A stretch of 64,000 bases of DNA from Nitrospirota bacterium (GCA_963840455.1 CAWIYV010000014.1:480001-544000); one strand, 5' to 3'; shown: positions 25,182 through 61,621, counted from the stretch's first letter. Numbers and translations: made by a program. Notes: generated by a model not told the origin, from the sequence alone.

Positions 25182-25214
25182 GGTGAAGAAGCAGGATAGA
25201 GGAGCCAGAATTGA

Positions 25215-25327
25215 AGCTCCCTGCAGCAAGCTGCAGGGAGCTTCGATCCTCAGGGTAATTATATTTATCCTGATCGCTCGCTAACTCCGCAGCAAGCTGC
25301 GGGTGGATGCGCTCGCTCCTGGATTCA
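25215..25327 (+). mobile_element. ~112-bp non-autonomous IS200/IS605-like element, copy 1
   Basis: TTGA|agctccctgcagcaagctgcaggg...ccgcagcaagctgcgg...gcgctcgctcctggattca. Confidence 0.75.
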
Positions 25328-25384
25328 GGAGTCAGGAGAAAGGTAGTCTCCTGGCAGGGGTCCCCTCTGGCTCCGGGCTCCTGG

Positions 25385-25948
25385 CTACTTTCCTCTCAGG
25401 CTCAGGTCCACGGCCGGTGTTGCACGGGTCGCTTCCGGGGCCTCAAAGTACTCTTCCGCGCGGAAGTTGAACAGCGAGGAGACGACGTTGTTGGGGAAGA
25501 CCTGGAGCGCCGTGCGGTAGTTCGCCACCAGGTCGTTGTAGAGCTGACGGGCGAAGGCGATGCGGTTCTCGGTGGAGGTGAGCTCCTCCTGGAGCTGCAA
25601 GACGTTCTGGTTGCTCTTGAGGGCCGGGTAGTTCTCCATGACCGCAAAGAGCTTGCCGAGGGCCTGGGTGAGCATGTTCTCGGCCTCGGCCTTGGACTGC
25701 GGCCCTGTTGCCCCCACGGCCTTTGCCCGCGCCGAGATCACCTTTTCGAGCGTGTCCTGCTCGAACTCCAAGGCCCCTTTGACCGTGGAGACAAGGTTGG
25801 GGATGAGGTCGTGCCGCCGGTTCAGCTGCACGTCGATCTGTTTCCAGGAACCCTGGACATCGTTCCGTTTTGCCACAAGACCGTTGTAGATCACGATCAG
25901 CCACAGGATGCCGAGAACCAGTACACCAAGTAAGAACCAGCCTACCAT
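25385..25948 (-). CDS. lemA: LemA family protein
   Basis: N-terminal TM, IDVQLNRRHDLIPNLV, ENYPALKS and ENRIAFARQLYN motifs. Confidence 0.95.
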   Translation of the reverse strand: MVGWFLLGVLVLGILWLIVIYNGLVAKRNDVQGSWKQIDVQLNRRHDLIPNLVSTVKGALEFEQDTLEKVISARAKAVGATGPQSKAEAENMLTQALGKLFAVMENYPALKSNQNVLQLQEELTSTENRIAFARQLYNDLVANYRTALQVFPNNVVSSLFNFRAEEYFEAPEATRATPAVDLSLRGK

Positions 25949-26008
25949 AGGGCCTCCTTGCGAACAGGCAGTGCCAAGAATGGCTGTATTATAACATACT
26001 ATCCCGCG

Positions 26009-26848
26009 TCACTCGCCGGCAAGCAGCGGCATGCCGGAGGTCGGGAAGATGCCGCGCTTCTCGGCCTCGGCGAAGAGCCGCCGGACCGCCGCAGTCCCCT
26101 CGTTGCCGAGGTCCAGGGAAAGGTCGTTCACGTACAGGTCGATGTGCTTCTGCATCACCGTCTCGTCCATTTCCTGACTGTGCCGACGGCAATAGGACAG
26201 GACCTCCGCCTCGTTCGCCCGAGCGTAGCGGATACTTTCCCGGATCCCCTCCTCTACCATCAGCAGTATATCCGACCCGAGCGAACGCAGTCCTAAGATC
26301 CCACCGAGGGGGATGGGGAGGCCGGAATATCGCTCCCACCATTCACCGAGATCAAGGAGCTTCTCCAGTTTATAGAGCGGATAGGTGAACCGGCTCTCAT
26401 GGATGATCAGGCCGGCGGTCACCGCGCCGTCCGCCACGGCCCGCATGATGCGGTCGAAGGTCATTAGCATCACGTTCGTCAGCGCCGGGTCATAGAGACG
26501 AAGGAGGAGCCAGGCGGTCGTGAGCTTCCCCGGGATGGCCACGGTCCCGCTCCGGACATTCTCAAGTTCTGTGCCGGGCCGCGCCACGAGGAGCGGCCCG
26601 CATCCCCGTCCCAGCGCTCCGCCGGACCGGAGCAGGGCATAACGTTCCCGGAGATGCCCCAGGGCATGATAGGATATCTTGGTAAGGTCCAGTTCGCCCG
26701 TGAGCGCCAGCTGGTTCAGGGTCTCCACGTCCTCGAGCCGCTCGCGGAACGTGATGCCCGGGACACGGACCTTGCCGTGCACGAGGGCGTAGAAGATATA
26801 GGTGTCGTTGGGGCAGGGAGAGTAGCCGATGGTGAGCTGTTGTTCCAT
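26009..26848 (-). CDS. mqnD: 1,4-dihydroxy-6-naphthoate synthase
   Basis: YSPCPNDTYIF, GGALGRGCGP, IIHESRFTY, LPIPLGG and HIDLYVN motifs. Confidence 0.93.
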   Translation of the reverse strand: MEQQLTIGYSPCPNDTYIFYALVHGKVRVPGITFRERLEDVETLNQLALTGELDLTKISYHALGHLRERYALLRSGGALGRGCGPLLVARPGTELENVRSGTVAIPGKLTTAWLLLRLYDPALTNVMLMTFDRIMRAVADGAVTAGLIIHESRFTYPLYKLEKLLDLGEWWERYSGLPIPLGGILGLRSLGSDILLMVEEGIRESIRYARANEAEVLSYCRRHSQEMDETVMQKHIDLYVNDLSLDLGNEGTAAVRRLFAEAEKRGIFPTSGMPLLAGE

Positions 26849-26902
26849 TAGAGGTCCCGGAAAGGAGTGCCGCATTCCGCGAAACGGTATTTCGGACGTT
26901 GA

Positions 26903-27037
26903 AGCTCCCTGCAGCAAGACTTCGGCGAGCTCAGTCGAGTCGCTGCAGGGAATCTTCGATCCTCAAGGTAGTGGTTTTATTCTAATCGCTCGCTAACCCC
27001 GCGCAGGCTACGGGGTTAGCGCTCGCTCCTGGATTCA
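26903..27037 (+). mobile_element. ~112-bp element, copy 2, with a 24-bp insertion in its left hairpin
   Basis: Same ends as copy 1; extra gacttcggcgagctcagtcgagtc at 26918-26941. Confidence 0.75.
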
Positions 27038-27090
27038 TTCCGCAATCGTTCGGCCGAGCTCACGACGAAGTCCGCAATCCGCCATTCGAT

Positions 27091-27822
27091 TCATCCATCC
27101 CATCCCTTCAGGATGCTGACAACGGCCTTTTGGACGGACTTGGCCGCCCGCGGGATATCCCACTTCTTCAGGTTGCGGTCCTCGACGATGTTCGAAATGC
27201 CGCGCACCTCGAGCCAGGGGACATTGTGGAGCGCCGCCACCTGGGCGACCGCCGCCCCCTCCATGTTCTCGCACAGGCCGTGGTAGCGCTCCTCCAGTTC
27301 CATCGCCCGCGCGGAGGTCCCCGTGCAGGTCGAGAGAGTGACGAAGGGGCCGAAATGCACTTTGCCGCTGCCTGGCTCCGCGGTGGTAATGAGCGTATGG
27401 AGCGACTGTTTCAGCAGTCGTTCCGATGCAGGGTAGGTCGTGAAGATCACCGAGGATGCGGTCTTGAGAAGCGGTATGCCAATATATTCCGTGTCCATGA
27501 ACCCGTCATGGGTCAGCACGCCTTCATCGCCGGCGATCTCCTGATGAGCGAGGGCCACGTCGCCTACGGCCGCGCCAGATGAGGGATAGGCGCCGCCGAC
27601 ACCGAACAGGACAAGCGCCTCGGGGGCGAACTCAGCGATCATGAGGGTGGCGGCGTGCGCGGCATTGACCTTGCCCATCCCGCCCACGCAGAGCAGGACA
27701 TCGCGGCCCGCGAGGGTCCCCGCGATTATGGATTTTGATCCGAGCTGCGTGGTCGCCTTCACCGTGGTCCATGCCAGGATATGTTCGGCTTCGGCCTGTA
27801 CTGAGCAGAGCAGCGCGATCAT
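27091..27822 (-). CDS. mqnB: Futalosine hydrolase
   Basis: PNP/MTAN fold motifs GMGKVNAA, GVGGAY, ENMEGAA and RGISNIVEDR; upstream of mqnD. Confidence 0.88.
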   Translation of the reverse strand: MIALLCSVQAEAEHILAWTTVKATTQLGSKSIIAGTLAGRDVLLCVGGMGKVNAAHAATLMIAEFAPEALVLFGVGGAYPSSGAAVGDVALAHQEIAGDEGVLTHDGFMDTEYIGIPLLKTASSVIFTTYPASERLLKQSLHTLITTAEPGSGKVHFGPFVTLSTCTGTSARAMELEERYHGLCENMEGAAVAQVAALHNVPWLEVRGISNIVEDRNLKKWDIPRAAKSVQKAVVSILKGWDG

Positions 27823-27976
27823 GAAGGCCCCTTTGCATCTCCCGAAAGCGACCGGCATCAAGATTACAGCATTTCCCGATGTGACAGGCGGTCTGCTGCG
27901 GAGAAAAGTGTCGTCGCTTTAATCCGGCATCCCGGAACACCGTTCATATCGTACCAATTATATACCATACTTTTGA

Positions 27977-28005
27977 TTGCACTTCTATTCCAAATTTGCT
28001 ATGAT
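27977..28005 (+). promoter_or_regulatory. Sigma70 promoter for aroC
   Basis: TTGCAC-17 nt-TATGAT with extended -10 TG. Confidence 0.55.
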
Positions 28006-28137
28006 GAGCCCGATTTTACAGGGTTTTTTCGAGATTCTGGCAGCGCGGGACGATGGCTCCGAAGGAGCAATGGCTCACAAGTTGTTGTATTGTAAGTAAA
28101 TTATCGTGTTCCTGGCCGGTGATACGAAGGAGGGTCA

Positions 28138-29331
28138 ATGTTACGCTATTTAACTGCAGGAGAGTCTCACGGGGAACTTCTGATGGGCATCATCGAAGGT
28201 GTGCCTGCCGGCCTGCTCATCCGGGTCACGGACATCGACAACGACCTCGGACGCCGTCAAGCGGGATACGGCCGGGGCGGCAGGATGAAGATCGAGAAGG
28301 ACACGGTCAAGATCCTCACGGGCGTGCGCTGGGGCAGGACCCTGGGCAGCCCCATCGGCCTGATGGTCAGGAACAAGGATTGGGACAACTGGCGAGCCAA
28401 GATGTCCCCGGACCCATCGTTCCTGAACACAGCCGAACCCGTGACGCGTCCGCGGCCGGGACACGCGGACCTTGCCGGCGCGCTCAAGTACGGCATGGCG
28501 GACATCCGCAACATCCTGGAGCGTTCCAGCGCCAGGGAGACGGCCATGCGCGTGGCCGTCGGCGCCGTGGCAAAGCGGCTCCTGGACGAGTTCGGCATCG
28601 GCATCACGAGTCACGTGATCGCCATCGGCGGGGTATACGCCAAGGGTGACCGGATGTCCCTCAAGGAGGTCCGGAAGCGGGCCGAGGCGTCGGAGCTTCG
28701 CTGCGCCGACCAGCAGGCAGAGAAGCGGATGATGCACAGGATCGACGAGGCCGCGCGCGCCGGGGACTCCCTGGGCGGCATCTATGAGATCATTGTTTCC
28801 GGTGTGCCGGTGGGGCTCGGCAGCCACGCCCATTGGGACCGCAAGCTCGACGCGCGCCTCGCCGCGGCCATCATGAGCATCCAGGCCATGAAGGGCGTCG
28901 AGGTCGGCTCGGGATTCGGCGTCGCCAACAAGCCGGGATCGCAGGTGCACGACGAGATCTTCTGGGGGCCCAAAGGCGGCTTCTTCCGCAAAACGAACCA
29001 CGCCGGCGGTATTGAGGGCGGCATGAGCAACGGGGAGGACATCACGCTCCGGGCCGCCATGAAACCGATCCCCACGCTGATGAGGCCGCTCCGCTCGGTG
29101 GATATCGTGACCCGGAAACCCTTCAAGGCCGCGGTGGAACGCTCCGATGTGTGCGCCGTACCCGCTGCCACCGTGGTGGGCGAGGCCGTCACGGCCTTCG
29201 AGATCGCTGTGGCCCTGATAGAGAAGTTCGGCGGCGACAGCATCGATGAGATGAAGCGGAACCACGAGCAGTACCGAAAGTACCTCAAGGATAGGATGGG
29301 AATCGTCGAGGAAGAGGCAACGAAACAGTAA
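28138..29331 (+). CDS. aroC: Chorismate synthase
   Basis: [22 protein letters not shown] and KPIPTL motifs. Confidence 0.97.
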
Positions 29332-29344
29332 TAAATATAGGTTG

Positions 29345-29462
29345 TTTACCGCAGAGATCGCTGAGAGCGCAGAGAAAATGCAACGGAGCAGGCGTGGCTT
29401 TCCTGCTGCAGCGTCAAGAACCAAAAGTTTTCTCAGCGTGCTCCGCCCCCTCTGCGGTGAAA
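29345..29462. repeat. Empty inverted-arm element, copy C
   Basis: tttaccgcagagatcgctgagagcgcagag ... ctcagcgtgctccgccccctctgcggtgaaa. Confidence 0.75.
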
Positions 29463-29475
29463 AGGTTTTCTGCTT

Positions 29476-29991
29476 ATGTTCAAGAACATCATCCTCACGG
29501 GTTTCATGGGCGTCGGCAAGACGAGCGTGGGAACGCGGCTGGCGAAGGACCTGGGCTACGTTTTTATTGACACCGATGAGCTGATCGAGGCGGACCAGAA
29601 GATCACCATCACGGAGATCTTCTCGAACTTCGGTGAACCGTACTTCCGCGACGTGGAGACGCGCGTCATCAAGCGGCTTCTTGAGAGCGAGGGCCAGGTG
29701 GTATCCACCGGCGGCGGTGCCGTGATCCGCGATGAGAACCGCAGGGCCTTCAAGGAGAACGGGGTAACCATCTGCCTCACCGCCCATCCGGAAAGCATCT
29801 ATGCGCGGATCAGGCACGAGACGCACCGGCCGCTGTTGCAGGGAAAGGACCCGCTGGCGAAGATACGGGAGCTGCTGGATGCCCGGGACCAGTTCTACCG
29901 CCAGGCGGACTTTGTCATCGATACCTCGGAGCGGTCCGTGGATGACGTGATCGTCGAGATCAAAGAGAAGGTACGCTATGCATGTTGTTAA
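29476..29991 (+). CDS. aroK: Shikimate kinase
   Basis: GFMGVGKT, GEPYFR, STGGG and RPLL motifs. Confidence 0.96.
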   Translation: MFKNIILTGFMGVGKTSVGTRLAKDLGYVFIDTDELIEADQKITITEIFSNFGEPYFRDVETRVIKRLLESEGQVVSTGGGAVIRDENRRAFKENGVTICLTAHPESIYARIRHETHRPLLQGKDPLAKIRELLDARDQFYRQADFVIDTSERSVDDVIVEIKEKVRYACC

Positions 29992-31060
29992 AGTAGAGCT
30001 CGGCGCGCGGAGCTACGACATCCTCATCGGCGCGAAGCTTGACAAGCTCGGCGAAGAGATGGGCAGGCTCCGCTTCGGCCGGAAGACCGCCGTGGTCACG
30101 AATCCCACGGTGAACGGGCTCTACGGCCAACGCGTGCTCAAGGCCCTGGCGGCTGCCGACTTTCTGGCGATGCCCGTGGAGGTCCCCGACGGCGAACAGT
30201 ACAAGACCCTGGACTGGGCCAATGCTGTCTTCACCGCGCTCCTGATCAACACCTTCGACCGCCGCTCGCCGCTCGTGGCGCTGGGCGGCGGCGTGATCGG
30301 CGACCTGACGGGCTTTGCCGCTTCCTGCTACATGCGGGGCGTGCCCTTCGTCCAGGTGCCGACGACGCTCCTCGCCATGGTGGACAGCAGCGTCGGCGGC
30401 AAGACCGGCGTGAACCACCCCATGGGCAAGAACATGATCGGAGCGTTCTACCAGCCCCGGCTCGTGCTCATGGACCTGGACACGCTCAAGACGCTGCCGA
30501 AGGAGGAGTTCCTCTCGGGCATGGCCGAGGTGATCAAGTACGGCGTGATCTGGGACCGCGAACTGTTCGATTTCCTCGACAAGAACCGGGAGAAGGTCCT
30601 CGCCCAGGAGCAGGGGCCGCTGGGTCACATCATCCGGCGTTCCTGCGAGATCAAGGCGGACGTGACGAGCAAGGACGAACGCGAAGGCGGTCTCCGCGCC
30701 ATTCTGAACCTCGGCCACACGGTGGGGCACGCGGTCGAGACGTTGTCGAACTATACGGTGCGCCATGGCGAGGCAGTGGCCATCGGCATGGTGTATGCCT
30801 CGAAGCTTGCCCATCGCATTGGTCAGTGCGACGCCAGGGTCCCGGAGCGGGTGGGAAAGCTGGTCCGCGACTACGGCCTGCCGTTCAGCCTCGCGGTCCT
30901 GAAGCGCCGGCCTTCCGTCGCCGAGCTCATGGACGCCATCCAGGTGGACAAGAAGGCCGAGGGCGGCAAGGTGCGCCTGGTCCTGCCGAAGAAGGTCGGC
31001 GAGGTCGTCATGACCGGGGAGTGGGACGAGCAGCAGCTCAGGACGCTGCTCGCCGAATAA
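29978..31060 (+). CDS. aroB: 3-dehydroquinate synthase
   Basis: GGGVIGDL, VPTTLLAMVDSSVGGKTG, LNLGHTVGHA and HGEAV motifs. Confidence 0.97.
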   Translation: MHVVKVELGARSYDILIGAKLDKLGEEMGRLRFGRKTAVVTNPTVNGLYGQRVLKALAAADFLAMPVEVPDGEQYKTLDWANAVFTALLINTFDRRSPLVALGGGVIGDLTGFAASCYMRGVPFVQVPTTLLAMVDSSVGGKTGVNHPMGKNMIGAFYQPRLVLMDLDTLKTLPKEEFLSGMAEVIKYGVIWDRELFDFLDKNREKVLAQEQGPLGHIIRRSCEIKADVTSKDEREGGLRAILNLGHTVGHAVETLSNYTVRHGEAVAIGMVYASKLAHRIGQCDARVPERVGKLVRDYGLPFSLAVLKRRPSVAELMDAIQVDKKAEGGKVRLVLPKKVGEVVMTGEWDEQQLRTLLAE

Positions 31061-31086
31061 GGCGAAGCGATCACAAGGAGGGAAGC

Positions 31087-31779
31087 ATGAGCGAATATAT
31101 CTGGCAATGCCCGTTCTGCGGCTCGGATCAGCCCGTGACGGACAATGAGCGGCAGGTGGTCATTGCGGACCTGACGCTGCCGAACGCGGACGGCACGCGC
31201 CGCCTCGTGACCAAGTTCGTGGTCTGCCCCAACGCGAAATGCCGCAAGTTCTCGCTGACCGCGTCCCTGCACGGCCGTGAGGTCGTCGGGACGAGGGTCT
31301 ACACGGGAAAGCACCTCACTTCCTGGAACCTCGTGCCGCCATCGCGCGCCCGGGCATTCCCGGTCTCGCTTCCGCCGGAGGTCCTTGAAGACTATCATGA
31401 GGCCTGTCTCACCCTCGACCTGAGCCCCAAGGTATCGGCGGCCTTGTCCCGGCGCTGCATCTCGGCGATGCTGAGGGACTACTGGCGTGTGCAGCCGGGA
31501 AGCCTGAACGACGAGCTTCGCCAGATCAAGGGCACTGCGGACCCGCTCACCTGGGAGGCCATCGAGTCCATCCGGAGGAGCGGCATGATCGGTGCCCGCA
31601 TGGAGGCAGAAGGTGCCGAGGTACAGGACACCGATCCCGGTGAAGCGGAACTGCTGATCGGCCTGATCGAAACGTTGATCCAGGACTGGTATATCGCCCG
31701 GGAGGAGCGTCGGAAACGGCTTCAGAAGATACGCCGGATCACCGGCGAGGAAACAGCGGAAAAGGAGGCAGACGAATGA
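31087..31779 (+). CDS. DUF4145-like protein with an N-terminal Zn ribbon
   Basis: CPFC and CPNAKC; EDYHEAC..LSPKVSAALSRRC; GGAGG RBS before ATG 31087. Confidence 0.7.
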   Translation: MSEYIWQCPFCGSDQPVTDNERQVVIADLTLPNADGTRRLVTKFVVCPNAKCRKFSLTASLHGREVVGTRVYTGKHLTSWNLVPPSRARAFPVSLPPEVLEDYHEACLTLDLSPKVSAALSRRCISAMLRDYWRVQPGSLNDELRQIKGTADPLTWEAIESIRRSGMIGARMEAEGAEVQDTDPGEAELLIGLIETLIQDWYIAREERRKRLQKIRRITGEETAEKEADE

Positions 31780-31832
31780 CGCGGCAGGAATGCTTTTATC
31801 CAGGAACGTCCCTCAGGAAAGGCGGTGAAACT

Positions 31833-32636: not shown

Positions 32637-32703
32637 TGGAAGAACGCTCCTGACGGGAAGATGCGGATGATGGCGCTGCGCCTCCATCCCGAAGGGCCCC
32701 ACC

Positions 32704-34125: not shown

Positions 34126-34137
34126 CGGATATTCATC

Positions 34138-34409
34138 GAAGCTTCCTGCAGCAAGCTGCGGAGAATGCGCTTGCTCCTGGATTTAAGCTCCCTATAGCAA
34201 ACTGCGTGGAGCTTCGATCCTCAGGGTTGAACTAATTATTCTAATCGCTCGCTAACCCCGCAGCAAACTGCGGGGAATGCGCTCGCTCCTGGATTTAAGC
34301 TCCCTATGGCAAACTGCATGGAGCTTCGATCCTCAAAGTTGAACTAATTATTCTAATCGCTCGCTAACCCCGCAGCAAACTGCGGGGAATGCGCTCGCTC
34401 CTGGATTCA
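34138..34409 (+). mobile_element. Head-to-tail array of the ~112-bp element (1 deleted unit and 2 full units)
   Basis: Units start at about 34139, 34186 and 34298, with a 112-nt period between the full units; junctions ggattta|agctccc. Confidence 0.8.
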
Positions 34410-34433
34410 TCCTTTTATGGTTCGGGGTGTCAC

Positions 34434-47540: not shown

Positions 47541-47951
47541 GGATCAAATACTGCAAGCATGAGGAGCATAGCGCAATCAGCAGTGAAAATCAAGCGGACA
47601 TCTGTAGGGTATGGAGTGGGAGAGCGCAAAAAAACGATTCCCTTTTTTGGGCAGCCCGTTGGTTCTGCTGTGCTAAGCATGCAGGGCACATGTGCTTGTT
47701 TCCGCCATGATCTGGCAAACCCCTGCAGCGCTTCCCCTGCGGACGCGCTGCTTTGGGGTCGGTTCCTGTTCGATCCGTGTAAGGGCATGCGTCACGCACA
47801 GTTGTCGCAGCCGGGCTGCCCTGGGCATGGGGTGAAGCAAGGCTTAAGTCTTTACCCAAACACCGCGCGTCCCTGGAGCGGCCCTACACCCGCGGGGTGC
47901 AGGCGAAATTCCTGGGCACCCGTCTTGGCCTAAGGAAGCGTCCCGACAGGG

Positions 47952-48059
47952 CGAATCCAGGAGCGAGCGCATATCCTAGTCTTATTGGGAATAGCAATTG
48001 AATAGGATAAATATTACACCCTGAGGATCGAAGCTCCATTCAGTAATCTTCTGGGAGCT
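47952..48059 (-). mobile_element. ~112-bp element, degenerate copy, minus strand
   Basis: gaatccaggagcgagcgcat...cctgaggatcgaagctcc...gggagct|TAAA. Confidence 0.65.
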
Positions 48060-48140
48060 TAAACGCGCATGTCCGAGGCCGAAGGCCGAGTTTGTGCGGG
48101 CGGGCGGACGTGGCCTTAGACGGGACAGAAATTTCGTTGT

Positions 48141-48256
48141 CGCCCCCCTGCAGCAAGCTGTAGGGGAACTCCGATCCTCAAGGAAACGATCGTTATTCTA
48201 ATCGCTCGCGGATACCCCGCAACCTGCTGCGGGGAATGCGCTCGCTCCTGGATTTA
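48141..48256 (+). mobile_element. ~112-bp element copy
   Basis: ccctgcagcaagctgtaggg...gatcctcaagg...ttattctaatcgctcgc...gcgctcgctcctggattta. Confidence 0.75.
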
Positions 48257-52748: not shown

Positions 52749-52824
52749 GGGCGAGTAGCTCAGCTGGGAGAGCACCGCGTTCGCAATGCGGGGGTCGAGG
52801 GTTCGAATCCCTTCTCGTCCACCA
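52749..52824 (+). tRNA. tRNA-Ala (anticodon CGC)
   Basis: 76-nt cloverleaf: GGGCGAG/CTCGTCC acceptor stem with G3:U70, CCGCG-TTCGCAA-TGCGG anticodon arm, GTTCGAATC T-loop, encoded CCA. Confidence 0.97.
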
Positions 52825-52837
52825 ATCTTACAATCAC

Positions 52838-53050
52838 CTACAACCCCGCCGCAATTTCTTTCACACCCGACTGTGCTAAATTTGTGCTAATCCTGTCGAG
52901 TATGTCCACACCATCACGAAGGCTTTCTGAATAGTGGTGCGCGTAACGCTGTGTCATGGGAGGGGATTTGTGGCATATCAACATCTGCACCTTTTACAGA
53001 TCGACACCTGCCTGAGTAAGTTGTGTCGCAAAGGTGTGGCACAGATTGCG
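52838..53050 (-). pseudogene. Tyrosine integrase C-terminal remnant
   Basis: RNLCHTFATQLTQAGVDL*KVQMLICHKSPPMTQRYAHHYSESLRDGVDILDR...; internal stop, degenerate LRH and LGH motifs, catalytic Y retained. Confidence 0.85.
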
Positions 53051-53325
53051 GACTAATCGTTGATAATTACAGCGCGATCAACTTCCTGAAGTATTGATTC
53101 GGTTACATAAACGGATGGTGTAAGTCTCAACCAGAATCTTGTTTATCCGCCTGCTCCTTTTCGCTACGTCCTGCAATACCCCAAAAATACCCCATCGTAA
53201 TTTCCTCTGTTCTGCTATATTACAATTAAGTATTACATCGAACAACTTTCCTAGATGCACAAAATATTACTATTGTAGAATCCGCGTGTATCTTGCATTT
53301 AGTTTCTTTTAAGGATTAGGTTTTC

Positions 53326-53404
53326 CCGACAAAGCTAAACCCGTCGTGAGATGGGGACGGAAAGCAACGGGTCTTGGAATGCAAGACGGCCGGGCTGCCG
53401 AAGG
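53326..53404 (+). ncRNA. Cyclic di-GMP-I (GEMM-I) riboswitch aptamer
   Basis: CGACAAAGCTAAACCCGTC-GTGA-GATGGGGACGGAAAGC..GGGTCTT...AAGACGGCCGGGCTGCCG matches the P1/P2/P3 consensus. Confidence 0.88.
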
Positions 53405-53435: not shown

Positions 53436-53584
53436 TTGAGAGAAGCAAGGTCTATGATAAGCCTAACAATCCTAGGAGACGAGTTACTGACAAAACTGAA
53501 GTTGAAGGCGAAGAGATTAGTGGGACAATGAAATGGATTGGACACAGGCGAAAATTAAGCTAGCAAAGAAAGGAGGAAATGACC

Positions 53585-54697
53585 ATGAAACGCACAAGTG
53601 TAGTAGTAACGAGCAGTATGTTTTTATTCCTGAGTATAGCTGTCGTTCTGAGCAACTGTGGAGGCGGCGGAGGTGGTGGAGGTGGTGGTACTCCTGCGGC
53701 TCCTGTTAGTGAAGGCTCAATAGCGAGCCCGGTAAACCTCGGCACTGCGTCAACGACTTTGACGCATTCCGGGTCGATCGCCTCTTACGATACCAGTTTT
53801 TATAAATTTACGACAGGACCAACCGGCACCTATACTATCAGCCTTACAAATACAAAGTCAGACTTGGAATGGTCGCTGTGGAGCGATTCAGGATTTATCA
53901 CAATAGTGGTAGATTGCGATACCTTCTCCGGTGCTCACGATGAGATTTGCTCAGCTCCGTTGTCTGCGGGAACCACCTATTATCTGGCCGTTGACGAGTG
54001 GGACCACGTTGCTGGAGCGTATACTCTTACAATATCTCATTCTACACTGCCACTGGCCCCGTATATCGCTGCTCAGGTCCTCACCTGGACCGGCACCCCG
54101 CCCGCTGGCTTCCCGATCCTGACAGCTCAGGTATGCACTGACTGGAACTGTGGTACGCCCATCACCAACGCCGTTGTTACGATAAATTCAACGACGCTAA
54201 GTTACAATGCAGGCGTGTATGAAGCTTCCGGGCCGATGCCGGCCGCAGGCGCCGCAGTCAACTTAAGCGTGACGATCCCAGGCGGCTGGCCTGTTACGGA
54301 TGGTACGTACACAGCATCGGGCACGCAATATACGACAGTCCCGAGCGTCACGAGCCCCACGGCATCTGCAACGTGGGATCGTACAGTTGCCAACACCGTC
54401 ACCTGGACGGCCGGATCGCCGACCACAGCATCGGAATATCTTGTAGGCATTATGGATGATCTCGGCGATTTCTATCCGACCAATAATGGCCCTGTTCCGG
54501 TTTCGACCGCTTCCGCATCGTATATACTGCCTGCCAACAGCATCACAGCGCCAGCAGCCTATCACGTGTTCGTGGGAATCGGAACTCAAGGTATCATAGC
54601 GGGGACGGGAGGTATCAGTATATCGCCCAGCGCCACAACCGGTTCGGGGCTATGGATCGGCAGCATTTCATCAATCGTTGACATCACCGTGAACTGA
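53585..54697 (+). CDS. Thr/Ser/Gly-rich surface lipoprotein with a PPC-like beta domain
   Basis: VLSNC lipobox followed by G10; GTYTISL and GTTYYLAV repeats; AGGAGG RBS. Confidence 0.8.
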   Translation: MKRTSVVVTSSMFLFLSIAVVLSNCGGGGGGGGGGTPAAPVSEGSIASPVNLGTASTTLTHSGSIASYDTSFYKFTTGPTGTYTISLTNTKSDLEWSLWSDSGFITIVVDCDTFSGAHDEICSAPLSAGTTYYLAVDEWDHVAGAYTLTISHSTLPLAPYIAAQVLTWTGTPPAGFPILTAQVCTDWNCGTPITNAVVTINSTTLSYNAGVYEASGPMPAAGAAVNLSVTIPGGWPVTDGTYTASGTQYTTVPSVTSPTASATWDRTVANTVTWTAGSPTTASEYLVGIMDDLGDFYPTNNGPVPVSTASASYILPANSITAPAAYHVFVGIGTQGIIAGTGGISISPSATTGSGLWIGSISSIVDITVN

Positions 54698-54761
54698 CAT
54701 GCGGGCAGGTTGATTTCTGATCAACCATCTAGATCTGATCGTCGTTCCCGGTAATATCCGT

Positions 54762-54795
54762 AAGGCGGCCTCGACCAAGAGGCCGCCTTTTTTTG
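54762..54795 (+). terminator. Rho-independent terminator
   Basis: aaggcggcctc-gaccaa-gaggccgcctt followed by a T run. Confidence 0.85.
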
Positions 54796-55221
54796 AATAA
54801 GTATATTTTATTGGATTAAAGCGCCCCAGGAACATACGGGCTCCTGGGGCTTTTGTGCTCATGAAGATTTCTATTAGAGCTTAGAAGAGTTTTGCCATTG
54901 TTTCGATCTACTCCTGAGTGTTCATGTGCATTTTTTCAACTGGTGTTCTGCACCTCCTATTCAAAAAGCAGCATTTCAAGTTTGTTTCATACAATCAGGT
55001 TCTTCCATACCCGTATCAGACTCTTGATCATATGACCTCCGAAGCGAGATTGCAGGGATAGGGGCGTTGAGTGCTGTACTAAAATTGTTCTAATAAATAT
55101 CGAAAAGGGCATAACAGGCAAGATAAACATAATTACCGAAGTGCTTCCACTTGCTTGATTATCAATATAAAATGGGAAACCAGAACCAAAGCAAGGGTTT
55201 CGCCAAAATTGCCTTTTCAAA

Positions 55222-55328
55222 TTCGCAATGCGGGGGCTGAGGGTTCGAATCCCTTCTCGTCCACCAATCTTACAATCACCTACAACCCTGCCGCAATTTC
55301 TTTTACACCCGACGGTACTAATTCTGTG
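55222..55328 (+). repeat. att repeat: tRNA-Ala 3' half plus about 60 bp of downstream flank
   Basis: ttcgcaatgcggggg..gagggttcgaatcccttctcgtccaccaatcttacaatcacctacaaccc.gccgcaatttc matches 52780-52888. Confidence 0.92.
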
Positions 55329-55708
55329 ATCAATGTCCTATAATCTAACCCCCCCCCATTTATTATTGGTGCCCTCTCTTGCTTCCTGCTATACTTTAAT
55401 GTATCAGATCTCAGCAACCGTGAATCGATGGCTCCCGACAAAGCCAAACCCGACACTACTCACTGGACACGGAGAAGGAATCCAACCGGCTGCCCGCGCC
55501 GAGGGGGCCCTTTAGGTTGATCATACGGATTTACCAGCCGAGTTGGAGGTCCTCGAACACATGTGAAAGATGCCGCTGCGGGAACGAGTGAAGTGAGAAA
55601 GCAGATAACAATGAAAAGAGAGAATCATGAAAATAGCGTGCAGCATGATCGTACTCTTCCTTCCTACATTATCGCTCAGTCATACACAGGCCAAAGGAGG
55701 GAAAAGTC

Positions 55709-56464
55709 GTGGCAAGAGAAAGTCTGACAAGGGTATTAATGTATGGGCTTGTGTGTCTGACACTGGTACTTTCTAACTGTGGAGGCAGTGTAGGTGGGGG
55801 AGACGGTGGAGGTGGCGGTGTACCATCAGGCGCTATCGCAGGCACATGGTTTGGAACGCTGGAAGATGCAGATTTAGTTTTGCACAAACTCAAAGTCACT
55901 GCTCATACTAATAACACGGTAACGGATGAGTTCGTAGACGATTTAGCAACAAACGTTACTCATACTGTAGCGGCTGTGTCCGGTAAGACGCAGATTTTCA
56001 GCTTAACAGGGAGCGATGGCACAACTGGCGGCTTTTATGTGGACGGTAGTTTCACTCACGCAGTATTGGTAGATGATGGCGGGAATTTTGCTGTCATGCA
56101 AAAAGGCGCTACGAGCCATCCAACCTATACGACAAGCGATGCTGTGGGTACGTGGTCCGGGTTTGAAGTCGTCTTGAATGAAAATTACCGCGTCGTTGAC
56201 ACCTATAGCTCAACGGTGACCATTTCAACGTATCCAAACTTTTCAGTCAGTAATAAGAACGGCACTATCACGGGCTCGTTTTCTGACTTTGATCCAGAGT
56301 ATGGTGGGTATGGTGGTTTTTGGGCCGATATAACATCACCCATGATTGGCTATGCCGGGGTATTCATGACACCGGACAAAATGTTTTTCGGCGGGCATTC
56401 CTGTGCAAAAAACGGCTATTGGCCTTTTAAGGATTGCTCATTCTCTTCATGGAACAAACAATGA
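55709..56464 (+). CDS. Gly-linker lipoprotein of unknown function
   Basis: AAAGGAGG RBS, VLSNCGGSVGGGDGGGGG, repeated GTWxG beta motifs. Confidence 0.78.
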   Translation: MARESLTRVLMYGLVCLTLVLSNCGGSVGGGDGGGGGVPSGAIAGTWFGTLEDADLVLHKLKVTAHTNNTVTDEFVDDLATNVTHTVAAVSGKTQIFSLTGSDGTTGGFYVDGSFTHAVLVDDGGNFAVMQKGATSHPTYTTSDAVGTWSGFEVVLNENYRVVDTYSSTVTISTYPNFSVSNKNGTITGSFSDFDPEYGGYGGFWADITSPMIGYAGVFMTPDKMFFGGHSCAKNGYWPFKDCSFSSWNKQ

Positions 56465-56694
56465 CAAAAATATTCATGGTATGAGCAACAGTCCATACCC
56501 ATATCAGACTCTTGATTATAGGACACCCGCAGTCGTCAGCCCAGGGGGTCGAGTCTGACTTATCGGTGATCCATCTAGCCGCCGTCGCTATCCAACGCAT
56601 CAACCGGAGACCGGACCTGATGAATATCGCCTGGTCCGGACCTGCTTGCAGGATCGGGCCGAGGACGGCCTTACGAAATCAGGGAAAACAAAAA

Positions 56695-57627
56695 GGTAAT
56701 TATCCCCTTAGAGGGACCAACTGTATACTTGGAGAAACACCTTCCAGGCACAGGAGGCCTCTATGGGGCTGTACGACTATCGATACTATCTTGCTGATGA
56801 GAATGAATGCCGCAAGCTTCTTCATGAGCTTCGCTGGCCTGGCGGCATAGAATGCCCACGCTGTGGCCATGAGTTTATCTGGAAGCTTGGAAGAAAAGAT
56901 CGCTATAAAAACAAATGTAGACGCTGTAAATATAAGTTTACAGAAACGTCGGGCACGATCTTTGAGAAGACCAGAACGCCTATCTCCAAATGGATCTGTG
57001 CCATCGGGCTCTTCAAGGTTGGGATTTCTGCCAACCAGCTGAAGGATGAGATTCGGGTCACATACAAGGCTGCCTGGCAGATGCTTGTCAAGATCAGAAA
57101 GGCCATTAAGGGTGACCATCTCACCAGCCAGCTGTCCGGCCACATTGAAGTCGATGAAGCCTACTTTGGCGGCCGACGCAAGGGGAAGCGCGGCAGAGGT
57201 GCTGCCGGGAAAACACCGGTCATCGGTATCATCCAGAGAAACGGGGATGTCAGAACGATTGCCATCCCCAATGTGAGAAGCAAGACGCTTCAGGCCCTTG
57301 TGAAGGAGCATGTTGAGGCAGGCAGCACGATCTATACTGACAACTATATCGGCTATAGAGGCCTTGATAATAGCGGCTTTTCTCATAAACTTGTCAATCA
57401 TCAGAAAGCTTTTGTATCTCGCAAAGGGCACCACACGAATTCGATTGAAGGCTTCTGGCGGTTATCGAAACACAAGCTGTATGCTCGATACCATAAAATC
57501 TCTAAAAAGCACTTGCCGTCCTATTTGGCAGAGTCGGAGTTCAAGTATAATGAGCGTTCACACCCTGATTTCATAAAACTGGTGCTCACGAAGCTCATAT
57601 TTCAGTCCCTCTAAGGGGATAATTACC
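56695..57627 (+). mobile_element. IS1595-family insertion sequence, 933 bp
   Basis: Perfect 23-bp TIRs ggtaattatccccttagagggac; 8-bp target duplication aacaaaaa (56687-56694 and 57628-57635). Confidence 0.95.
56763..57614 (+). CDS. IS1595-family DDE transposase
   Basis: RWPGGIECPRC Zn ribbon, IEVDEAYFGG, IYTD, HTNSIEGFW and YLAESEFKYN motifs. Confidence 0.95.
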   Translation: MGLYDYRYYLADENECRKLLHELRWPGGIECPRCGHEFIWKLGRKDRYKNKCRRCKYKFTETSGTIFEKTRTPISKWICAIGLFKVGISANQLKDEIRVTYKAAWQMLVKIRKAIKGDHLTSQLSGHIEVDEAYFGGRRKGKRGRGAAGKTPVIGIIQRNGDVRTIAIPNVRSKTLQALVKEHVEAGSTIYTDNYIGYRGLDNSGFSHKLVNHQKAFVSRKGHHTNSIEGFWRLSKHKLYARYHKISKKHLPSYLAESEFKYNERSHPDFIKLVLTKLIFQSL

Positions 57628-57630
57628 AAC

Positions 57631-57662
57631 AAAAAAGCAGGCCGGAAACCGGCCTGCTTTTG
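57631..57662. terminator. Bidirectional terminator adjacent to the IS insertion site
   Basis: aaaaagcaggccgg-aaa-ccggcctgcttttt. Confidence 0.8.
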
Positions 57663-57686
57663 ATCATTTAAAGCTCGTAGATCGGA

Positions 57687-58025
57687 CTACGGAAGGTCCG
57701 AACCTCCCACCGGGCTGAGAAGCGTGTCCCAGATCCTGGTGTTCTCGTCAACATTCGCCACTCCTCCTGCTGCCTCGCCTCTTGCTTCCGAATTGTCCAT
57801 TAAGAAGGCGTCATGATACAGGGCTGTACCAATCTCCATAGGAACTTCACGTTCTCCTTTCACCGCGAAGTCCTTGCTGATTGCAGTGTCAGGGGCAGCA
57901 AATGCGCTGACATACAATTCTGTGCCAACATCCTTTCCGGCCATGATGGGGAACTCATCTGCATAAGCCACTCCGACGGCTATCGTGAACGCCATCACTG
58001 TCAATATGGTAGTAAATATCTTCAT
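57687..58025 (-). CDS. Small secreted acidic protein
   Basis: Signal peptide ending AYA, internal repeat GTELY/GTALY; GAGG RBS. Confidence 0.65.
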   Translation of the reverse strand: MKIFTTILTVMAFTIAVGVAYADEFPIMAGKDVGTELYVSAFAAPDTAISKDFAVKGEREVPMEIGTALYHDAFLMDNSEARGEAAGGVANVDENTRIWDTLLSPVGGSDLP

Positions 58026-58278
58026 GGTTTATACCTCTCTTTCCATACAGCTTCATTGCTTGATTAGAGTATAGCACCGAACTGGCTATTGTCAAGAAAG
58101 TGCGCAACTAATTGACATTGGATGGAATATATAAGGTTTTAGGGGGAGGGGAGCAAAAGCGTCAAAACAGTGTCAATACAACCTTGTGTAAATTTTCTGC
58201 AAAGGGGATGATTGTCCATCCAAAGTATTAGCCATTGCATGGTCATCTCTTGACGCCTTTGTAGTTCGATGATTTAAT

Positions 58279-58386
58279 TGAATCCAGGAGCGAGAGCATT
58301 CCCCGTAGCTTGCTGCGGGGTTCGTGAGCGATTAGAATAAATAGTACTACCTTGAGGATCGAGGATTCAGCTTGCTGCAGGGAGCT
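58279..58386 (-). mobile_element. ~112-bp element copy, minus strand
   Basis: tgaatccaggagcgagagcattccccg...gcttgctgcagggagct|TCAA. Confidence 0.75.
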
Positions 58387-58486
58387 TCAATCATAATGCA
58401 GGCGGGCAGGCAGCAAATTACGAATCAATGCCTTGCAGGGAACATATGCAGGGTTTTTTCATTGGCATCAGATGAGGAGGATGGTT

Positions 58487-58759
58487 ATGACCATGCGGTT
58501 CCCGAGGCTCACGGGCAGGATATCTATCACCGAAGAGGAGGGGAAGGTCGTCATCGCCGGGGACCCCGAAGGCCTGCGGTCCTTCGGCAGGCTCCTGACC
58601 TGGCTCGGCGATGCTGACCAGGAGCAGTGGCCCTACCTGCCGCCTGGTGGCCATGCTCATATCCACGTCTACCCGAAGGACGACCTCAGCCCGGATTCGC
58701 GTGAGGTGGAGCTGATGCGTCTGGACGCAAAGCGATCCTCCGGATCTGCAGAGCAATGA
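58487..58759 (+). CDS. Imm32-like orphan immunity protein
   Basis: VIAGDPEGLRSFGRLL...HIHV...RLDAK pattern; GAGGAGG RBS. Confidence 0.5.
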   Translation: MTMRFPRLTGRISITEEEGKVVIAGDPEGLRSFGRLLTWLGDADQEQWPYLPPGGHAHIHVYPKDDLSPDSREVELMRLDAKRSSGSAEQ

Positions 58760-58824
58760 AGCGTCTTCGGCGAGCACCCTCTCGCTCAACGCATCAGCGG
58801 AAGGCTCGATGATGCCCAGACCAT

Positions 58825-59532
58825 TCACTTCCTTCTTAATAGCCGCTCCAAACCCTTCTCCAACAGTTTTTCGGCGCCTGCCTTACCGACCTCGGTGCTC
58901 ACCTCAGCGAGGATGGCAGATACGATCTGCTTCGCCACTTCTTCCGGCGGCGCGCCATTCTTTCCGCCGATATCGGTCATTTCGATCCGCGATAGCGCGA
59001 CGGTCCGCGGCTTCCCGCCGAGCGCGGCAATGCGGATTTCAGTCTGGGCATTCTCGATCACGAGCCGCTTTATCCGGAGACGTTTTTCAACGCCCTTCCC
59101 GCCCCTGTCCCCGGTCCTCGACGGCTGGCCTGCCGCCAGGTTCTTCTTGAGCGCATCGACGTTCGCAACACCGGTTTCGTTCATCTCGTAGACCACCAGC
59201 GGAGCGGCGATGCGGATGTCGTCGATCACCACGGGGTTCGAAGCGATGGTGCGGGGAGCAATGCGGACGCTGATGCCGCCGAGCGAAAGGATATGGGGCG
59301 CCGAATACCCCGGCGGGTTTGCGACGGTCAGCCCCTCGATCGCCCCCTTGCCCTGCGCAGGACGGATGGATATGCGGTCGACCCGCACGGAGGTCCCTGT
59401 TGCTTGCGACCCGTAGCGTTCGATGGCGTTCTTGACGATCCCGTCGAGGTTTGTCCAGAGGAAGGTCAGGCCTGCGGCCAAGAGCAATCCGGCTGAGGCA
59501 AGGATCACGAGGAATTTCCGTGTGCGAGTCAT
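58825..59532 (-). CDS. AsmA-like protein
   Basis: N-terminal TM, IERYGSQATGTSV, LTVANPPGYS motif. Confidence 0.75.
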   Translation of the reverse strand: MTRTRKFLVILASAGLLLAAGLTFLWTNLDGIVKNAIERYGSQATGTSVRVDRISIRPAQGKGAIEGLTVANPPGYSAPHILSLGGISVRIAPRTIASNPVVIDDIRIAAPLVVYEMNETGVANVDALKKNLAAGQPSRTGDRGGKGVEKRLRIKRLVIENAQTEIRIAALGGKPRTVALSRIEMTDIGGKNGAPPEEVAKQIVSAILAEVSTEVGKAGAEKLLEKGLERLLRRK

Positions 59533-59766
59533 ACTGTCTCCTGTGATGGCCGTTCGGTCATAAAACGCTGCGTCGTCCTGAGCACTCCCTTGCAAATGGA
59601 CCTTTATACCGGTTGCAATGCATGAGGTCAATCGAATCCCGTATCACGCGCAACGAGCGCAGAACCGCACAAGAGCCTTGTACTTCATTTAAGACATATT
59701 CCGCATCCGCATCTCCGGAAGAGTATCCGGTGGTTTTCAAAGCCTTCGGGAAACTCTCTCATTCTG

Positions 59767-60228
59767 TTATTTCTCAGCTATCGCTTTCATGATGCTGTTC
59801 TTAATGTTCTGATAAAAGGGCAGAAGCTGCGGCATGAGCTCTTTCGGTCCGACTTCAGTGTCCCCGGATACCTCGCCGGTCTGAAACTCCATCTCTACGG
59901 TGCTGTCCGCGACCTTCACCTTCAGCGTATACCCGACCGTTCCTTCATGGAAATGAAGCTGGAATGAATCAACCGGTTTTGACCACCGATAGGACCCTTT
60001 TGCGGTGATCGTTCCTGATCCTTTATCGGACTGTTGCACGATGTTTTTGCCGCCCTGGTAGTGTTCCGACAACCAGTTTGATGCGGCCAGGAATGCGGCG
60101 TCTTTTGTCTTGTGATGCTCCTCGCTGAATGTAACCGCTCCTTCCCCCTTATCCCCCGGGTCGTGAACAGCGGGCAGTCCCGCACATCCTGCGAGCAGCA
60201 AAGCCAATGCCAACGCAACGTTCTTCAT
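59767..60228 (-). CDS. Lipoprotein (DUF4468-like)
   Basis: LAGC lipobox, NWLSEHY and DKGSGTITAKG; AAGGAGG RBS. Confidence 0.7.
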   Translation of the reverse strand: MKNVALALALLLAGCAGLPAVHDPGDKGEGAVTFSEEHHKTKDAAFLAASNWLSEHYQGGKNIVQQSDKGSGTITAKGSYRWSKPVDSFQLHFHEGTVGYTLKVKVADSTVEMEFQTGEVSGDTEVGPKELMPQLLPFYQNIKNSIMKAIAEK

Positions 60229-60313
60229 AATAACGCTTTGCCTCCTTATTTGTGATAGCTGTTGAATTCGCGCAATTCGTATTGCATATCCATTGGATAT
60301 CCCGTGGTTCATC

Positions 60314-61480
60314 CTATGATGTCCTGAGCGCCTCCACGATGTTCATCCTGGCTGCGCGGAACGCCGGCAGGACGCCGCCCACGAACCCCATGATGAACGA
60401 GAAGACGAGCGACCGCGTCACGATGTCCGGTGTGAGGGCAAAGGAGAAGGCGAGCTCCGAGAAGGTCTGCCAATTGACGGTCGAGACGGTGAAGAGCTGC
60501 AAAAAGGACGAGAAGAAAAGCCCCATGACGCCGCCGGCGAGGCCCAGCAGCAGGGACTCCATCAGGAACGCGGCCATGATGCTCCTTCTGCGGAAGCCCA
60601 GGGCCCGGAGCGTGCCGATCTCGGCGGTGCGGTTGGCCACGGCCGCGTACATGGTGATCATGGCGCCAATGACCGCGCCAAGGGAGAAGATGAGGGTGAG
60701 CGTCATGCCCATGATCCTGAGGAAGGTGGCCATCATCTCGGACTGGTCGCTGTAGTACTTCGTCTCGCGCTTCGCCTCCACGGTGAGGCGGGGGTCAGTC
60801 TCGAGACGCTCTTTCACCTTCGGGAGCTCCGCCGCGTCCCGCAGGCGGAAGAGCACGGATGAATAGACCGGCCTGCGGAAGGCCTGCATGAGCTGGTCCA
60901 CGTCGCCCCAGATCTCGGAGCTGAAGCCCGTCGCTCCCGCGTCGAAGGTCCCCACCACGGTCCAGTCCCGCATGCCGAAGCGCAGCGTCTCGTTGATCCC
61001 GCCGCCCTTGAACCGTTTCGCCACGCTCTGGCCTGCGATCACTTCCAGCGACCCGGGCCGCGGCATATGACCCTCGATGAGCCTTACCTGCGGCCGGAGC
61101 GCGAGCGACTCCTGGCTGATCCCCCGGATCACTACGTTCGATGGCTTGTCCGTGCCGCGCTTGGGCAGGGAGATGAGGACGACCATCTCCTTGGCCAGGA
61201 GCAGCCTGCCGTCCGTGCCGACGGCGATCTCCGGCTGGGTCGCGACCAGGGCGGCCTGATCCCGGTCCACTCCGCTCTGCACCTCCGACTGCGAGGCCTT
61301 GCGGATCACGACCATGTTGTCGGTCGAGCCGGTCGCGATCAGTGTCTTCCGGAGTCCCGCGGCCAGCATCAGGGTCGCCGCGAATACGAAGACAACAAGC
61401 GCCATGCCCGAGGCGGTCAGCACCGTGGTAAGACGGCGGGTCCAGAGGTTCCGGAAGCTGTAGAAGAAAGGGATAGCCAT
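60314..61480 (-). CDS. ABC exporter permease (MacB/FtsX family)
   Basis: RNLWTRRLTT, RTAEIGTLRALGF and PAFRAAR motifs. Confidence 0.92.
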   Translation of the reverse strand: MAIPFFYSFRNLWTRRLTTVLTASGMALVVFVFAATLMLAAGLRKTLIATGSTDNMVVIRKASQSEVQSGVDRDQAALVATQPEIAVGTDGRLLLAKEMVVLISLPKRGTDKPSNVVIRGISQESLALRPQVRLIEGHMPRPGSLEVIAGQSVAKRFKGGGINETLRFGMRDWTVVGTFDAGATGFSSEIWGDVDQLMQAFRRPVYSSVLFRLRDAAELPKVKERLETDPRLTVEAKRETKYYSDQSEMMATFLRIMGMTLTLIFSLGAVIGAMITMYAAVANRTAEIGTLRALGFRRRSIMAAFLMESLLLGLAGGVMGLFFSSFLQLFTVSTVNWQTFSELAFSFALTPDIVTRSLVFSFIMGFVGGVLPAFRAARMNIVEALRTS

Positions 61481-61510
61481 GATGAAAACCCATTCAATAT
61501 TCAGGATTGG

Positions 61511-61621
61511 CGCTCCCTGCAGCAAGCTGCAGGGAATCTTCGATCCTCAGGGTTGGTTATTATCCTAATCGCTCGCTAGCCCCGCGGCAAGCTACGGGGA
61601 ATGCGCTCGCTCCTGGATTCA
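61511..61621 (+). mobile_element. ~112-bp element copy
   Basis: gctccctgcagcaagctgcagggaatcttcgatcctcagg...gcgctcgctcctggattca between the two permease genes. Confidence 0.78.

Follow-up and report, generated by a model that had tools for sequence, protein, structure and literature searches.

A transposase-less repeat family with IS200/IS605-type hairpin ends in a Nitrospirota genome, probably mobilised in trans

A 64,000-nucleotide stretch of a Nitrospirota bacterium (G000:C14:480001-544000, called the window at its full length) carries nine units of a short repeat that is spread through the genome. These repeats are most likely palindrome-associated transposable elements (PATEs), that is, non-autonomous derivatives of an IS200-type (IS200/IS605) insertion sequence that are moved in trans. 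The anatomy of the unit, its precise and duplication-free insertion after TGAA, the complementarity between guide and cleavage site, and a strand bias are all observed. One copy was inserted after the lineage had parted from its closest relative, and in its hairpins and right-end tail the repeat appears akin to tnpA-bearing IS200 elements. The enzyme itself and a single-strand circle would follow by analogy with characterised members of the group, with no fitting enzyme seen in G000. The repeat is a known kind of element, here unusually abundant.

The G000 genome consists of 4,029,776 bases in 14 contigs, with a completeness score of 100%. A repeat search of the window joined all nine units, and BLASTN with one unit as the query returned 301 matches in G000. 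A family profile of 113 positions, built on 110 full-length BLAST matches, was scanned against the whole window and detected the nine units and zero further ones, at 25214-25327, 26902-27037, 34144-34184 (the short unit), 34185-34296, 34297-34409, 47953-48060 (-), 48146-48255, 58279-58387 (-) and 61512-61621. The nine related copies of the original prediction were thereby all recovered, with none elsewhere in the window, and its description of two related hairpins with a conserved core and end holds. One of the nine, 34136-34181, is a 46-nt terminal-only unit and not a full copy.

Genome-wide, the profile gave 353 matches at E <= 1e-3 in 4.03 Mb, of which 233 are near full length; among the others, 63 are confined to the right part of the unit, 53 to the left part and 4 to its interior. 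They fall at 281 places, 49 of them with two to five adjoining matches, and numbers of this order exclude chance as the origin of the repeat. The family makes up ~1% of the genome, with ~350 copies. At 111-113 nt the unit is too short for a transposase gene, and nearly every copy is intergenic, a crude gene call putting 17 of 226 places within predicted genes. A 20-base motif served to fetch 72 loci from other genomes, and each of them contains the repeat. Rfam gave no match to it, either at the gathering threshold or at E <= 1, and the family was not found described in the literature searched on Nitrospira small repeats or IS200 elements or on PATEs; two of the papers mention Nitrospira once each, in an unrelated context. 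Viral contigs gave two exact 17-mer matches, both of which lie in coding DNA, are attributable to chance and yield no profile match.

The boundaries of the unit were read from flank profiles of 112 copies and from empty sites. In the orientation of the original prediction, conservation ends after ...GGATTCA on one side and starts at RTTG on the other. When no selection was made on the last bases, GGATT was followed by CA in 146 of 235 right ends, and TA (41) and GA (13) at this position are mostly junctions to the next unit; ATTG, GTTG or ATTT stands ahead of 172 of 201 left ends. The empty sites assign the CA past this supposed end to the host and the TTG ahead of the supposed start to the element, which in the same orientation starts TTGAAGCT... 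and ends ...CTCCTGGA. The TTGA first proposed as the target is accordingly the element's own end (TCAA on the active strand), and the real target is TGAA, contained in the earlier ...ggaTTCA. The polarity is also reversed, in that the active strand is the complement of the one first read and the former left end is the right end. On the active strand, TGAA is followed by the element start TCCAGG and the element closes with AGCT-TCAA; its exact outer parts are the left-end linker TCCAGGAGCGAGCG and the right-end tail AGCTTCAA. The two termini have only TGAA-like bases in common. A classical miniature inverted-repeat transposable element was rejected, as neither terminal inverted repeats nor a target duplication is present.

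Four empty sites were compared. They stem from two orthologous loci, the second of which is empty in three relatives, and from a single paralogous site. The closest relative, G003, whose flanks are 96% identical, is without exactly the 111-nt copy at 61507-61617, and its site reads ...TTGAA/CCC... on the top strand, the slash marking the point of insertion. The copy at 26899-27033 is missing from G003, G002 and G004, with TGAA kept at the site in G002 and G004; because all three sites are empty, this copy was gained after the split from G003. The paralogous site comes from a second repeat family, element B, whose uninterrupted copies read GGGCGAA/CGCGCATG where the window carries the copy at 47957-48063. 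At each of them, adding the unit to the empty site gives the filled one, with zero duplication and an ambiguity of two bases (TT / AA), which bears out the earlier claim that no target is duplicated. A duplication of TT or ATT was considered and rejected, since at 26903 the left flank reads GTT against ATT at the element end and the empty sites are single-copy. The spacer at the site of copy 1 was too diverged for such a reading in all five relatives, as was the array site, and likewise the 47.9-48.3 kb site in G003. TGAA stands ahead of 83 of the 119 left ends that were caught by pattern among 233 copies, and TAAA, mostly at array junctions, ahead of 15. In the 72 loci from other genomes, TGAA precedes 36 of 54 readable left ends.

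These comparisons bear on whether the family is a fossil, in which transposition has ended and genomes differ through deletion or recombination instead. A fossil would suit the lack of a detectable cognate TnpA in G000 and in five same-genus genomes, and the identity to the consensus, which over 217 full copies has a median of only 86%. Four copies are also apparently common to G003, as BLAST rows run through them. Nevertheless, a fossil is unlikely, because the site of 26899-27033 is empty in three relatives including the closest and so points to a later gain, the absence at 61507 in G003 is base-exact, and the best copies reach 97% identity to the consensus, with three identical pairs.

The unit contains two hairpins in direct orientation, each with a 9-bp stem and a TT loop; 18 nt separate the first from the left end and 8 nt the second from the right end. 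The order on the active strand is TGAA, the left boundary, TCCAGGAGCGAGCG, CATT, the left hairpin (CCCCGCAGC-TT-GCTGCGGGG) and an AT-rich middle, followed by GAGGATCGAA, GATT, the right hairpin (CCCTGCAGC-TT-GCTGCAGGG), AGCT, TCAA and the right boundary. In IS608 of Helicobacter pylori, according to the accessible part of PMC3201880, the left cut falls 3' of TTAC, 19 nt ahead of the left hairpin, and the right cut at TCAA, past the right hairpin. Recognition of these sites goes through the four bases 5' of each hairpin, with T-4 paired to A-34, C-3 to G-35 and the third base unpaired (PMC3201880, same part). The rule between cleavage site and guide, as interpreted from this source, is c1:g2, c2:g1 and c4:g4. 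Both CATT/TGAA and GATT/TCAA in the repeat satisfy it. The guide AAAG and the site TTAC of IS608 fit the same rule. CATT is the guide in 94 of the 119 caught left ends, and among 69 caught right ends TCAA was found in 58, GATT in 61 and the full combination of GATT, AGCT and TCAA in 47.

Further likenesses to IS608 (accessible parts of PMC3201880 and PMC5027513) are the subterminal position of the hairpins, the TCAA that closes the right end, and a cut 3' of a tetranucleotide ahead of the left hairpin, at 18 nt in the repeat and 19 in IS608. AG directly 3' of the right hairpin and an orientation bias that fits the lagging-strand template are likewise found in both. Unlike IS608 as described there, the repeat has neither tnpA nor tnpB, its target is TGAA and not TTAC, and its right site lies 4 nt and not 10 nt past the hairpin. 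The stems of the repeat are perfect.

If the repeat behaves as IS608 does, both its hairpins would be bound on single-stranded DNA by a Y1 HUH transposase (TnpA) provided in trans. The CATT and GATT 5' of the hairpins would pair with the cleavage sites TGAA and TCAA and so set the position of the cuts. The top strand would then leave as a circle, and this circle would be pasted 3' of another TGAA on the lagging-strand template, with no duplication of the target. A different site-specific recombinase (IS110-type, serine or tyrosine) that exchanges strands at the shared TT/AA could produce similar joints, given that AA stands at both of them (TGAA, TCAA), so that the junctions alone allow a 2-bp core exchange, and that array junctions resemble circle junctions. 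Such an enzyme is nonetheless very unlikely, as it leaves the guide/site complementarity, the IS200-like spacing, the hairpin identity and the replication-strand bias unexplained.

Elements that share this design and carry a transposase were found in another genus and in metagenomes. Matches to the Y1 domain occur in 54 of 64 genomes of the taxonomic family, and among 30 loci fetched from them only L093, from the other genus (G049), bears the hairpin core, once on either side of tnpA. Eight copies of this G049 IS200 were aligned, with hairpins CCCAGCAGCTTGCTGCTGGG and CCTCGCAGCTTGCTGCGGGG. At its left end, the target is TTAT and an 18-nt linker from cut to hairpin ends in the guide AATA. The right end consists of AATG, the hairpin, TTAT and TTAC, that is, a 4-nt spacer and a 4-nt site, as in the repeat. 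Metagenome contigs were searched with the 140-aa G049 TnpA (P0001) and the best 80 of 393 relatives' loci were kept. In 18 of the 80, the right end is a guide followed by CCCCGCAGCTTGCTGCGGGG, 4 nt and the site, and the remaining 62 did not match the hairpin pattern. The guide/site pairs in these 18 loci are GATG/TCAC in 8 and AATG/TTAC in 10, and the IS608 rule is obeyed by 19 of 19 right ends when L093 is counted with them. The left ends of the metagenome relatives pair AATA with TTAT or GATA with TCAT. The spacer AGCT is common to the repeat and five of the 19 autonomous right ends.

The hairpins of the repeat are identical to those of the G049 IS200 (L093) and of L186, L194, L196, L201 and L205 or differ from them by compensatory pairs, and the spacing is the same, with 18-19 nt on the left and 4+4 nt on the right. 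The right ends of the repeat and L186 differ at four bases, which make up two compensatory pairs; the first belongs to the stem, and the second links guide and site. Natural covariation of this kind on a common scaffold argues more strongly than any other result for a like mode of action in the repeat and these IS200 elements. The G049 and metagenome elements differ from the repeat in that they encode a 140-aa TnpA, use the targets TTAT or TCAT and the right sites TTAC or TCAC, and have a left linker and an interior unrelated to it; none was found in the repeat-rich genome. What suggests kinship with autonomous IS200 elements is the make-up of the hairpins, their spacing, adherence to the rule and the right-end tail. 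Of the ends of the repeat, tnpA-bearing elements outside G000 share the hairpins and the right-end tail but neither the left linker nor the target.

The bias in strand was examined with our own crude gene call and the local GC skew, on the assumption that the G-rich strand is the leading strand, which is supported by the position of 2350 of 3489 genes on it. Of 226 places, 152 have the element's top strand on the G-rich strand (p = 2e-7). Because genes too favour this strand, the places were stratified by the direction of the neighbouring genes. Where the neighbouring genes converge or diverge, the element's top strand has this position in 56 of 80 cases (p = 5e-4), and where both genes are co-directional on the G-rich strand, in 64 of 90. 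The direction of the bias agrees with that reported for the IS200/IS605 family in the accessible part of PMC5027513.

Several results weigh against mobilisation by an IS200-type enzyme. Between co-directional genes on the C-rich strand, the element shows zero bias (18 of 37), and overall the bias is moderate (67%) and partly entangled with gene direction. Of the 233 near full-length copies, the end patterns recovered only 119 left ends and 69 right ends. In 82 of 217 full copies, among them copy 1 of the window and array units, AGCT replaces GATT ahead of the right hairpin, which lengthens the hairpin and leaves the pairing rule unmet. The hairpin stems are kept in only ~60-80% of these 217 copies, fewer than the 90-99% that keep the linker after TGAA, a block that follows the left hairpin and closes with ATTAGAATAA, the block GAGGATCGAAG and the AGCTT tail, an order of conservation that IS608 biology does not predict. 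A cognate transposase was not found in G000, where the Y1_Tnp profile matched only two places, neither within 6 kb of a copy. The 30 Y1 loci from the family and 30 more from the five same-genus genomes lack these exact ends, and neither an exact parent nor any autonomous element with the TGAA target or this left-end linker was found among these 30 + 30 loci and the 80 from metagenomes. The original prediction had named the lack of a tnpA/tnpB parent with the same ends as evidence against itself; inside G000 there is none, and the kinship is confined to the other genus and the metagenomes.

The first of the two Y1 matches in G000, at C10:393728-394087, is an IS200 tnpA interrupted by an in-frame TAG; it shares 36% identity with the G049 TnpA, and its hairpins are unrelated to those of the repeat. 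Its region (C10:393700-394300, L001/L239) adjoins a tRNA gene and has a decayed left hairpin, and it is the only small IS200-type tnpA of the genome; G004 (L113) keeps a tyrosine codon in place of the TAG. The second match, at C14:236761, is a 79-aa fragment, which is all that G000 retains of a long Y1-domain protein type. Genes for such proteins (~290-345 aa) number 2 to 17 per genome in G001-G005 (L118, L131-L158), and none adjoins an element. A repetitive extragenic palindromic (REP) or REPIN origin, with a REP-associated tyrosine transposase (RAYT), was rejected, as the hairpins are direct and not inverted within the 112-nt unit and 30 same-genus long Y1 loci are without a copy. TnpB profiles gave nothing in G000 either (PF07282, 0 of 25 candidates; PF01385, 0 of 11), IscB not having been searched for. 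Since TnpB is not detected and the only small tnpA is broken and unrelated, the repeats are read as a PATE-like family mobilised in trans, and the earlier proposal of an abundant, transposase-less, hairpin-ended family of IS200/IS605 (Y1 HUH) type, inserting at a tetranucleotide and moved in trans, is supported.

The locus L014 (G076:C8:45000-84800) is titled Chloroflexia, but its contig is syntenic with G000 C1 at 76-80% identity, so it is no evidence of an inter-phylum transfer. This contig, of 4.18 Mb with three element copies only, all within 20 kb, is probably a Nitrospirota chromosome in a mixed bin, and a scan of the genome behind L014 for a parent element found none with these exact ends. 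Split elements, whose left and right parts lie 0.3-1.1 kb apart, contain a host gene or an inserted copy of element B and not a transposase. The host gene is an open reading frame (ORF) which, from its translation by eye, we take to be polyphenol-oxidase-like.

There is a small chance that the family is still inserting although the six genomes of the genus hold no cognate transposase for it. The mover might then be an unrecognised HUH enzyme of the host or of a plasmid, or the conserved blocks might be a domesticated, replication-oriented signal that the host keeps. Another explanation gives the repeats, additionally or mainly, a host function, as REP-like protein-binding sites, mRNA stabilisers or terminators, maintained by selection more than by selfish spread. 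It would account for the 217-copy conservation of the non-hairpin blocks beside variable stems, for the almost wholly intergenic placement and for the persistence of the family without a transposase. Yet close relatives differ in presence or absence at the same intergenic sites, and copies occur in both orientations relative to neighbouring genes. In the one copy tested, a promoter candidate (TTGCTG, 17 nt, TAGAAT) fails a simple scan, and the sole terminator-like site is a weak 7-pair stem in the element's middle and coincides with neither hairpin. The fold outside the two hairpins is no better than that of shuffled sequences (z = -1.3), and Rfam offers no known RNA. Taken with these points, a host function is improbable.

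It had further been suggested that transcribed copies act as guide scaffolds. On this account the repeats would be omegaRNAs for TnpB or IscB, with the host flank as the guide, and elsewhere PATE-like elements do often encode omegaRNAs, according to the accessible part of PMC10055086. This is the least probable of the alternatives, and the suggestion finds no footing in G000, given the TnpB result above. The end that was taken for the scaffold is the left end, and the true right end measures ~32 nt. Known omegaRNA scaffolds are much longer than this. The PATE-like elements of Geobacillus stearothermophilus are like the repeat in their gene-less IS200/IS605 ends and predicted mobilisation in trans, and differ from it in that TnpA and TnpB/IscB partners are present in the same genome and the ends encode omegaRNAs (PMC10055086, accessible part), neither of which was found here.

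The closest described parallel is with the PATEs of Haloquadratum walsbyi (for example HqIRS46), which, in the accessible part of PMC3119063, are described like the repeat as having no transposase gene and no terminal inverted repeats. Both have like palindromes near the two ends and no target duplication (PMC3119063, same part). Both also have a terminal-only form, which in H. walsbyi measures ~50 bp and arises by deletion between the two palindromes, and both receive insertions of other small repeats (PMC3119063, as above). In H. walsbyi, strain-specific insertions exist though the IS200-type transposase genes are pseudogenes, and strain C23 presents the same paradox as G000 (PMC3119063, as far as accessible). 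The repeat differs from these PATEs in its Nitrospirota host, its unrelated sequence and its IS200-only type, with no IS1341/TnpB partner found, and in forming a single family of ~350 copies with frequent head-to-tail arrays.

The family cleanly illustrates, in nature and outside model systems, the DNA-guided target code of IS200/IS605. Three or four guide/site pairs on one conserved hairpin scaffold show the code to be naturally reprogrammed. The repeats also explain the many-contig assemblies and the differing intergenic regions of this Nitrospirota genus, and in annotation their sites should be masked as mobile repeats and not taken for regulatory RNAs. The question raised by Haloquadratum is posed again, namely how elements keep moving without a working transposase in the genome.

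Arrays and 46-nt terminal-only units are secondary products of the family. A short form of 46-47 nt, consisting of the left linker, one hairpin and the right tail, accounts for 24 of 42 short matches genome-wide, and several such units stand alone after TGAA. They fit a repeat-mediated deletion between the two like hairpins, and the terminal-only PATEs of Haloquadratum are ascribed to a deletion between two palindromes in the accessible part of PMC3119063. Head-to-tail arrays number 36 (23 of two units, 8 of three and 5 of four). Inside an array, most units close with TAAA and have a right hairpin that is variant and imperfect, and the array finishes, as read on the top strand, with a TCAA-ended or a short unit. 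An array might move as one composite bounded by its first left end and its last good right end, which is weakly supported, or might grow locally. A TAAA-type unit can also insert alone, because a single one sits in element B.

Element B has a core of ~390 nt, reaches ~520 nt in a copy with inverted ends and gave 39 BLAST matches of >150 nt in G000; it has no Rfam match and no long ORF. Apart from the window, it is seen for instance at G000 C11:347633-348160 and C11:233045-233372. Two other B copies lie inside copies of the hairpin element. A 24-nt insert, seen in the window at 26918-26941, occurs 12 times in G000 with up to 4 mismatches (sites include C7:65760, C8:59076, C9:40760, C10:59381 and C14:263148). 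Six of the 12 are exactly in the loop of a left or right hairpin and the others follow similar GCAG contexts, which recalls the small repeats that target PATE palindromes in Haloquadratum (PMC3119063, accessible part). In a split variant, found at at least seven places (including C10:136660-136815, C14:48283-48438 and C10:454760-454915 in G000), the left and right parts are ~38 nt apart (TCTTGCCCCCAGCG...).

The units of the window are given here with the strand on which they are active. Copy 1 (25211..25323, minus strand, 113 nt, 108 bits) is of the long-hairpin subtype, with AGCT replacing the GATT guide ahead of the right-end hairpin, and its target TGAA is the complement of 25324-25327. 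Copy 2 (26899..27033, minus, 135 nt) owes its length to the 24-nt insert in the loop of the right-end hairpin and has its TGAA at the complement of 27034-27037. An array of three follows, all on the minus strand. Its first unit on the active strand (34294..34405, 112 nt) has the target TGAA at the complement of 34406-34409; the next (34182..34293, 112 nt) has a variant right-end hairpin and a TAAA end at the junction with the neighbouring unit. The last of the array on the active strand is the terminal-only unit (34136..34181, 46 nt), which joins the left-end linker through a single hybrid hairpin to the AGCT-TCGA tail of the right end. Across 34185-34409, the right-hand hairpins of the array units (left-hand as first read) are decayed.

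Further along, an old copy (47957..48063, plus strand, 107 nt, 63 bits), with both hairpins decayed and a TAAA end, is inserted precisely after CGAA within a copy of element B. The two halves of that copy (47904-47956 and 48064-48138, span 47904..48138, no strand assigned) served as the paralogous empty-site control. The copy at 48141..48252 (minus, 90 bits, model positions 6-112) has a diverged right-end tail and TAAA ahead of its left end. The copy at 58283..58390 (plus, 108 nt, 102 bits) is preceded by TGAA (58279-58282) and ends in TCAA, the left arm of its right-end hairpin being partly deleted. The last copy (61507..61617, minus, 111 nt, 113 bits) belongs to the GATT-guide subtype, with the target TGAA at the complement of 61618-61621 and the tail AGCG-CCAA.

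Three other features of the window were observed. A c-di-GMP-I-GGC riboswitch aptamer at 53325-53403 (+) scores 70 bits, above the gathering score, and lies upstream of an ORF at 53579-54697. The 3' part of a tRNA gene (52749-52821) starts a 107-nt direct repeat, 52780-52886 and, 2.4 kb downstream, 55222-55328, whose two copies are 93% identical; they resemble a pair of attachment sites flanking a small integrated element, with the riboswitch inside it. A 42-nt direct repeat at 18978-19019 and 20156-20197, 88% identical and rich in CGCGAAG-like heptamers, is probably a phased-heptamer intergenic repeat.

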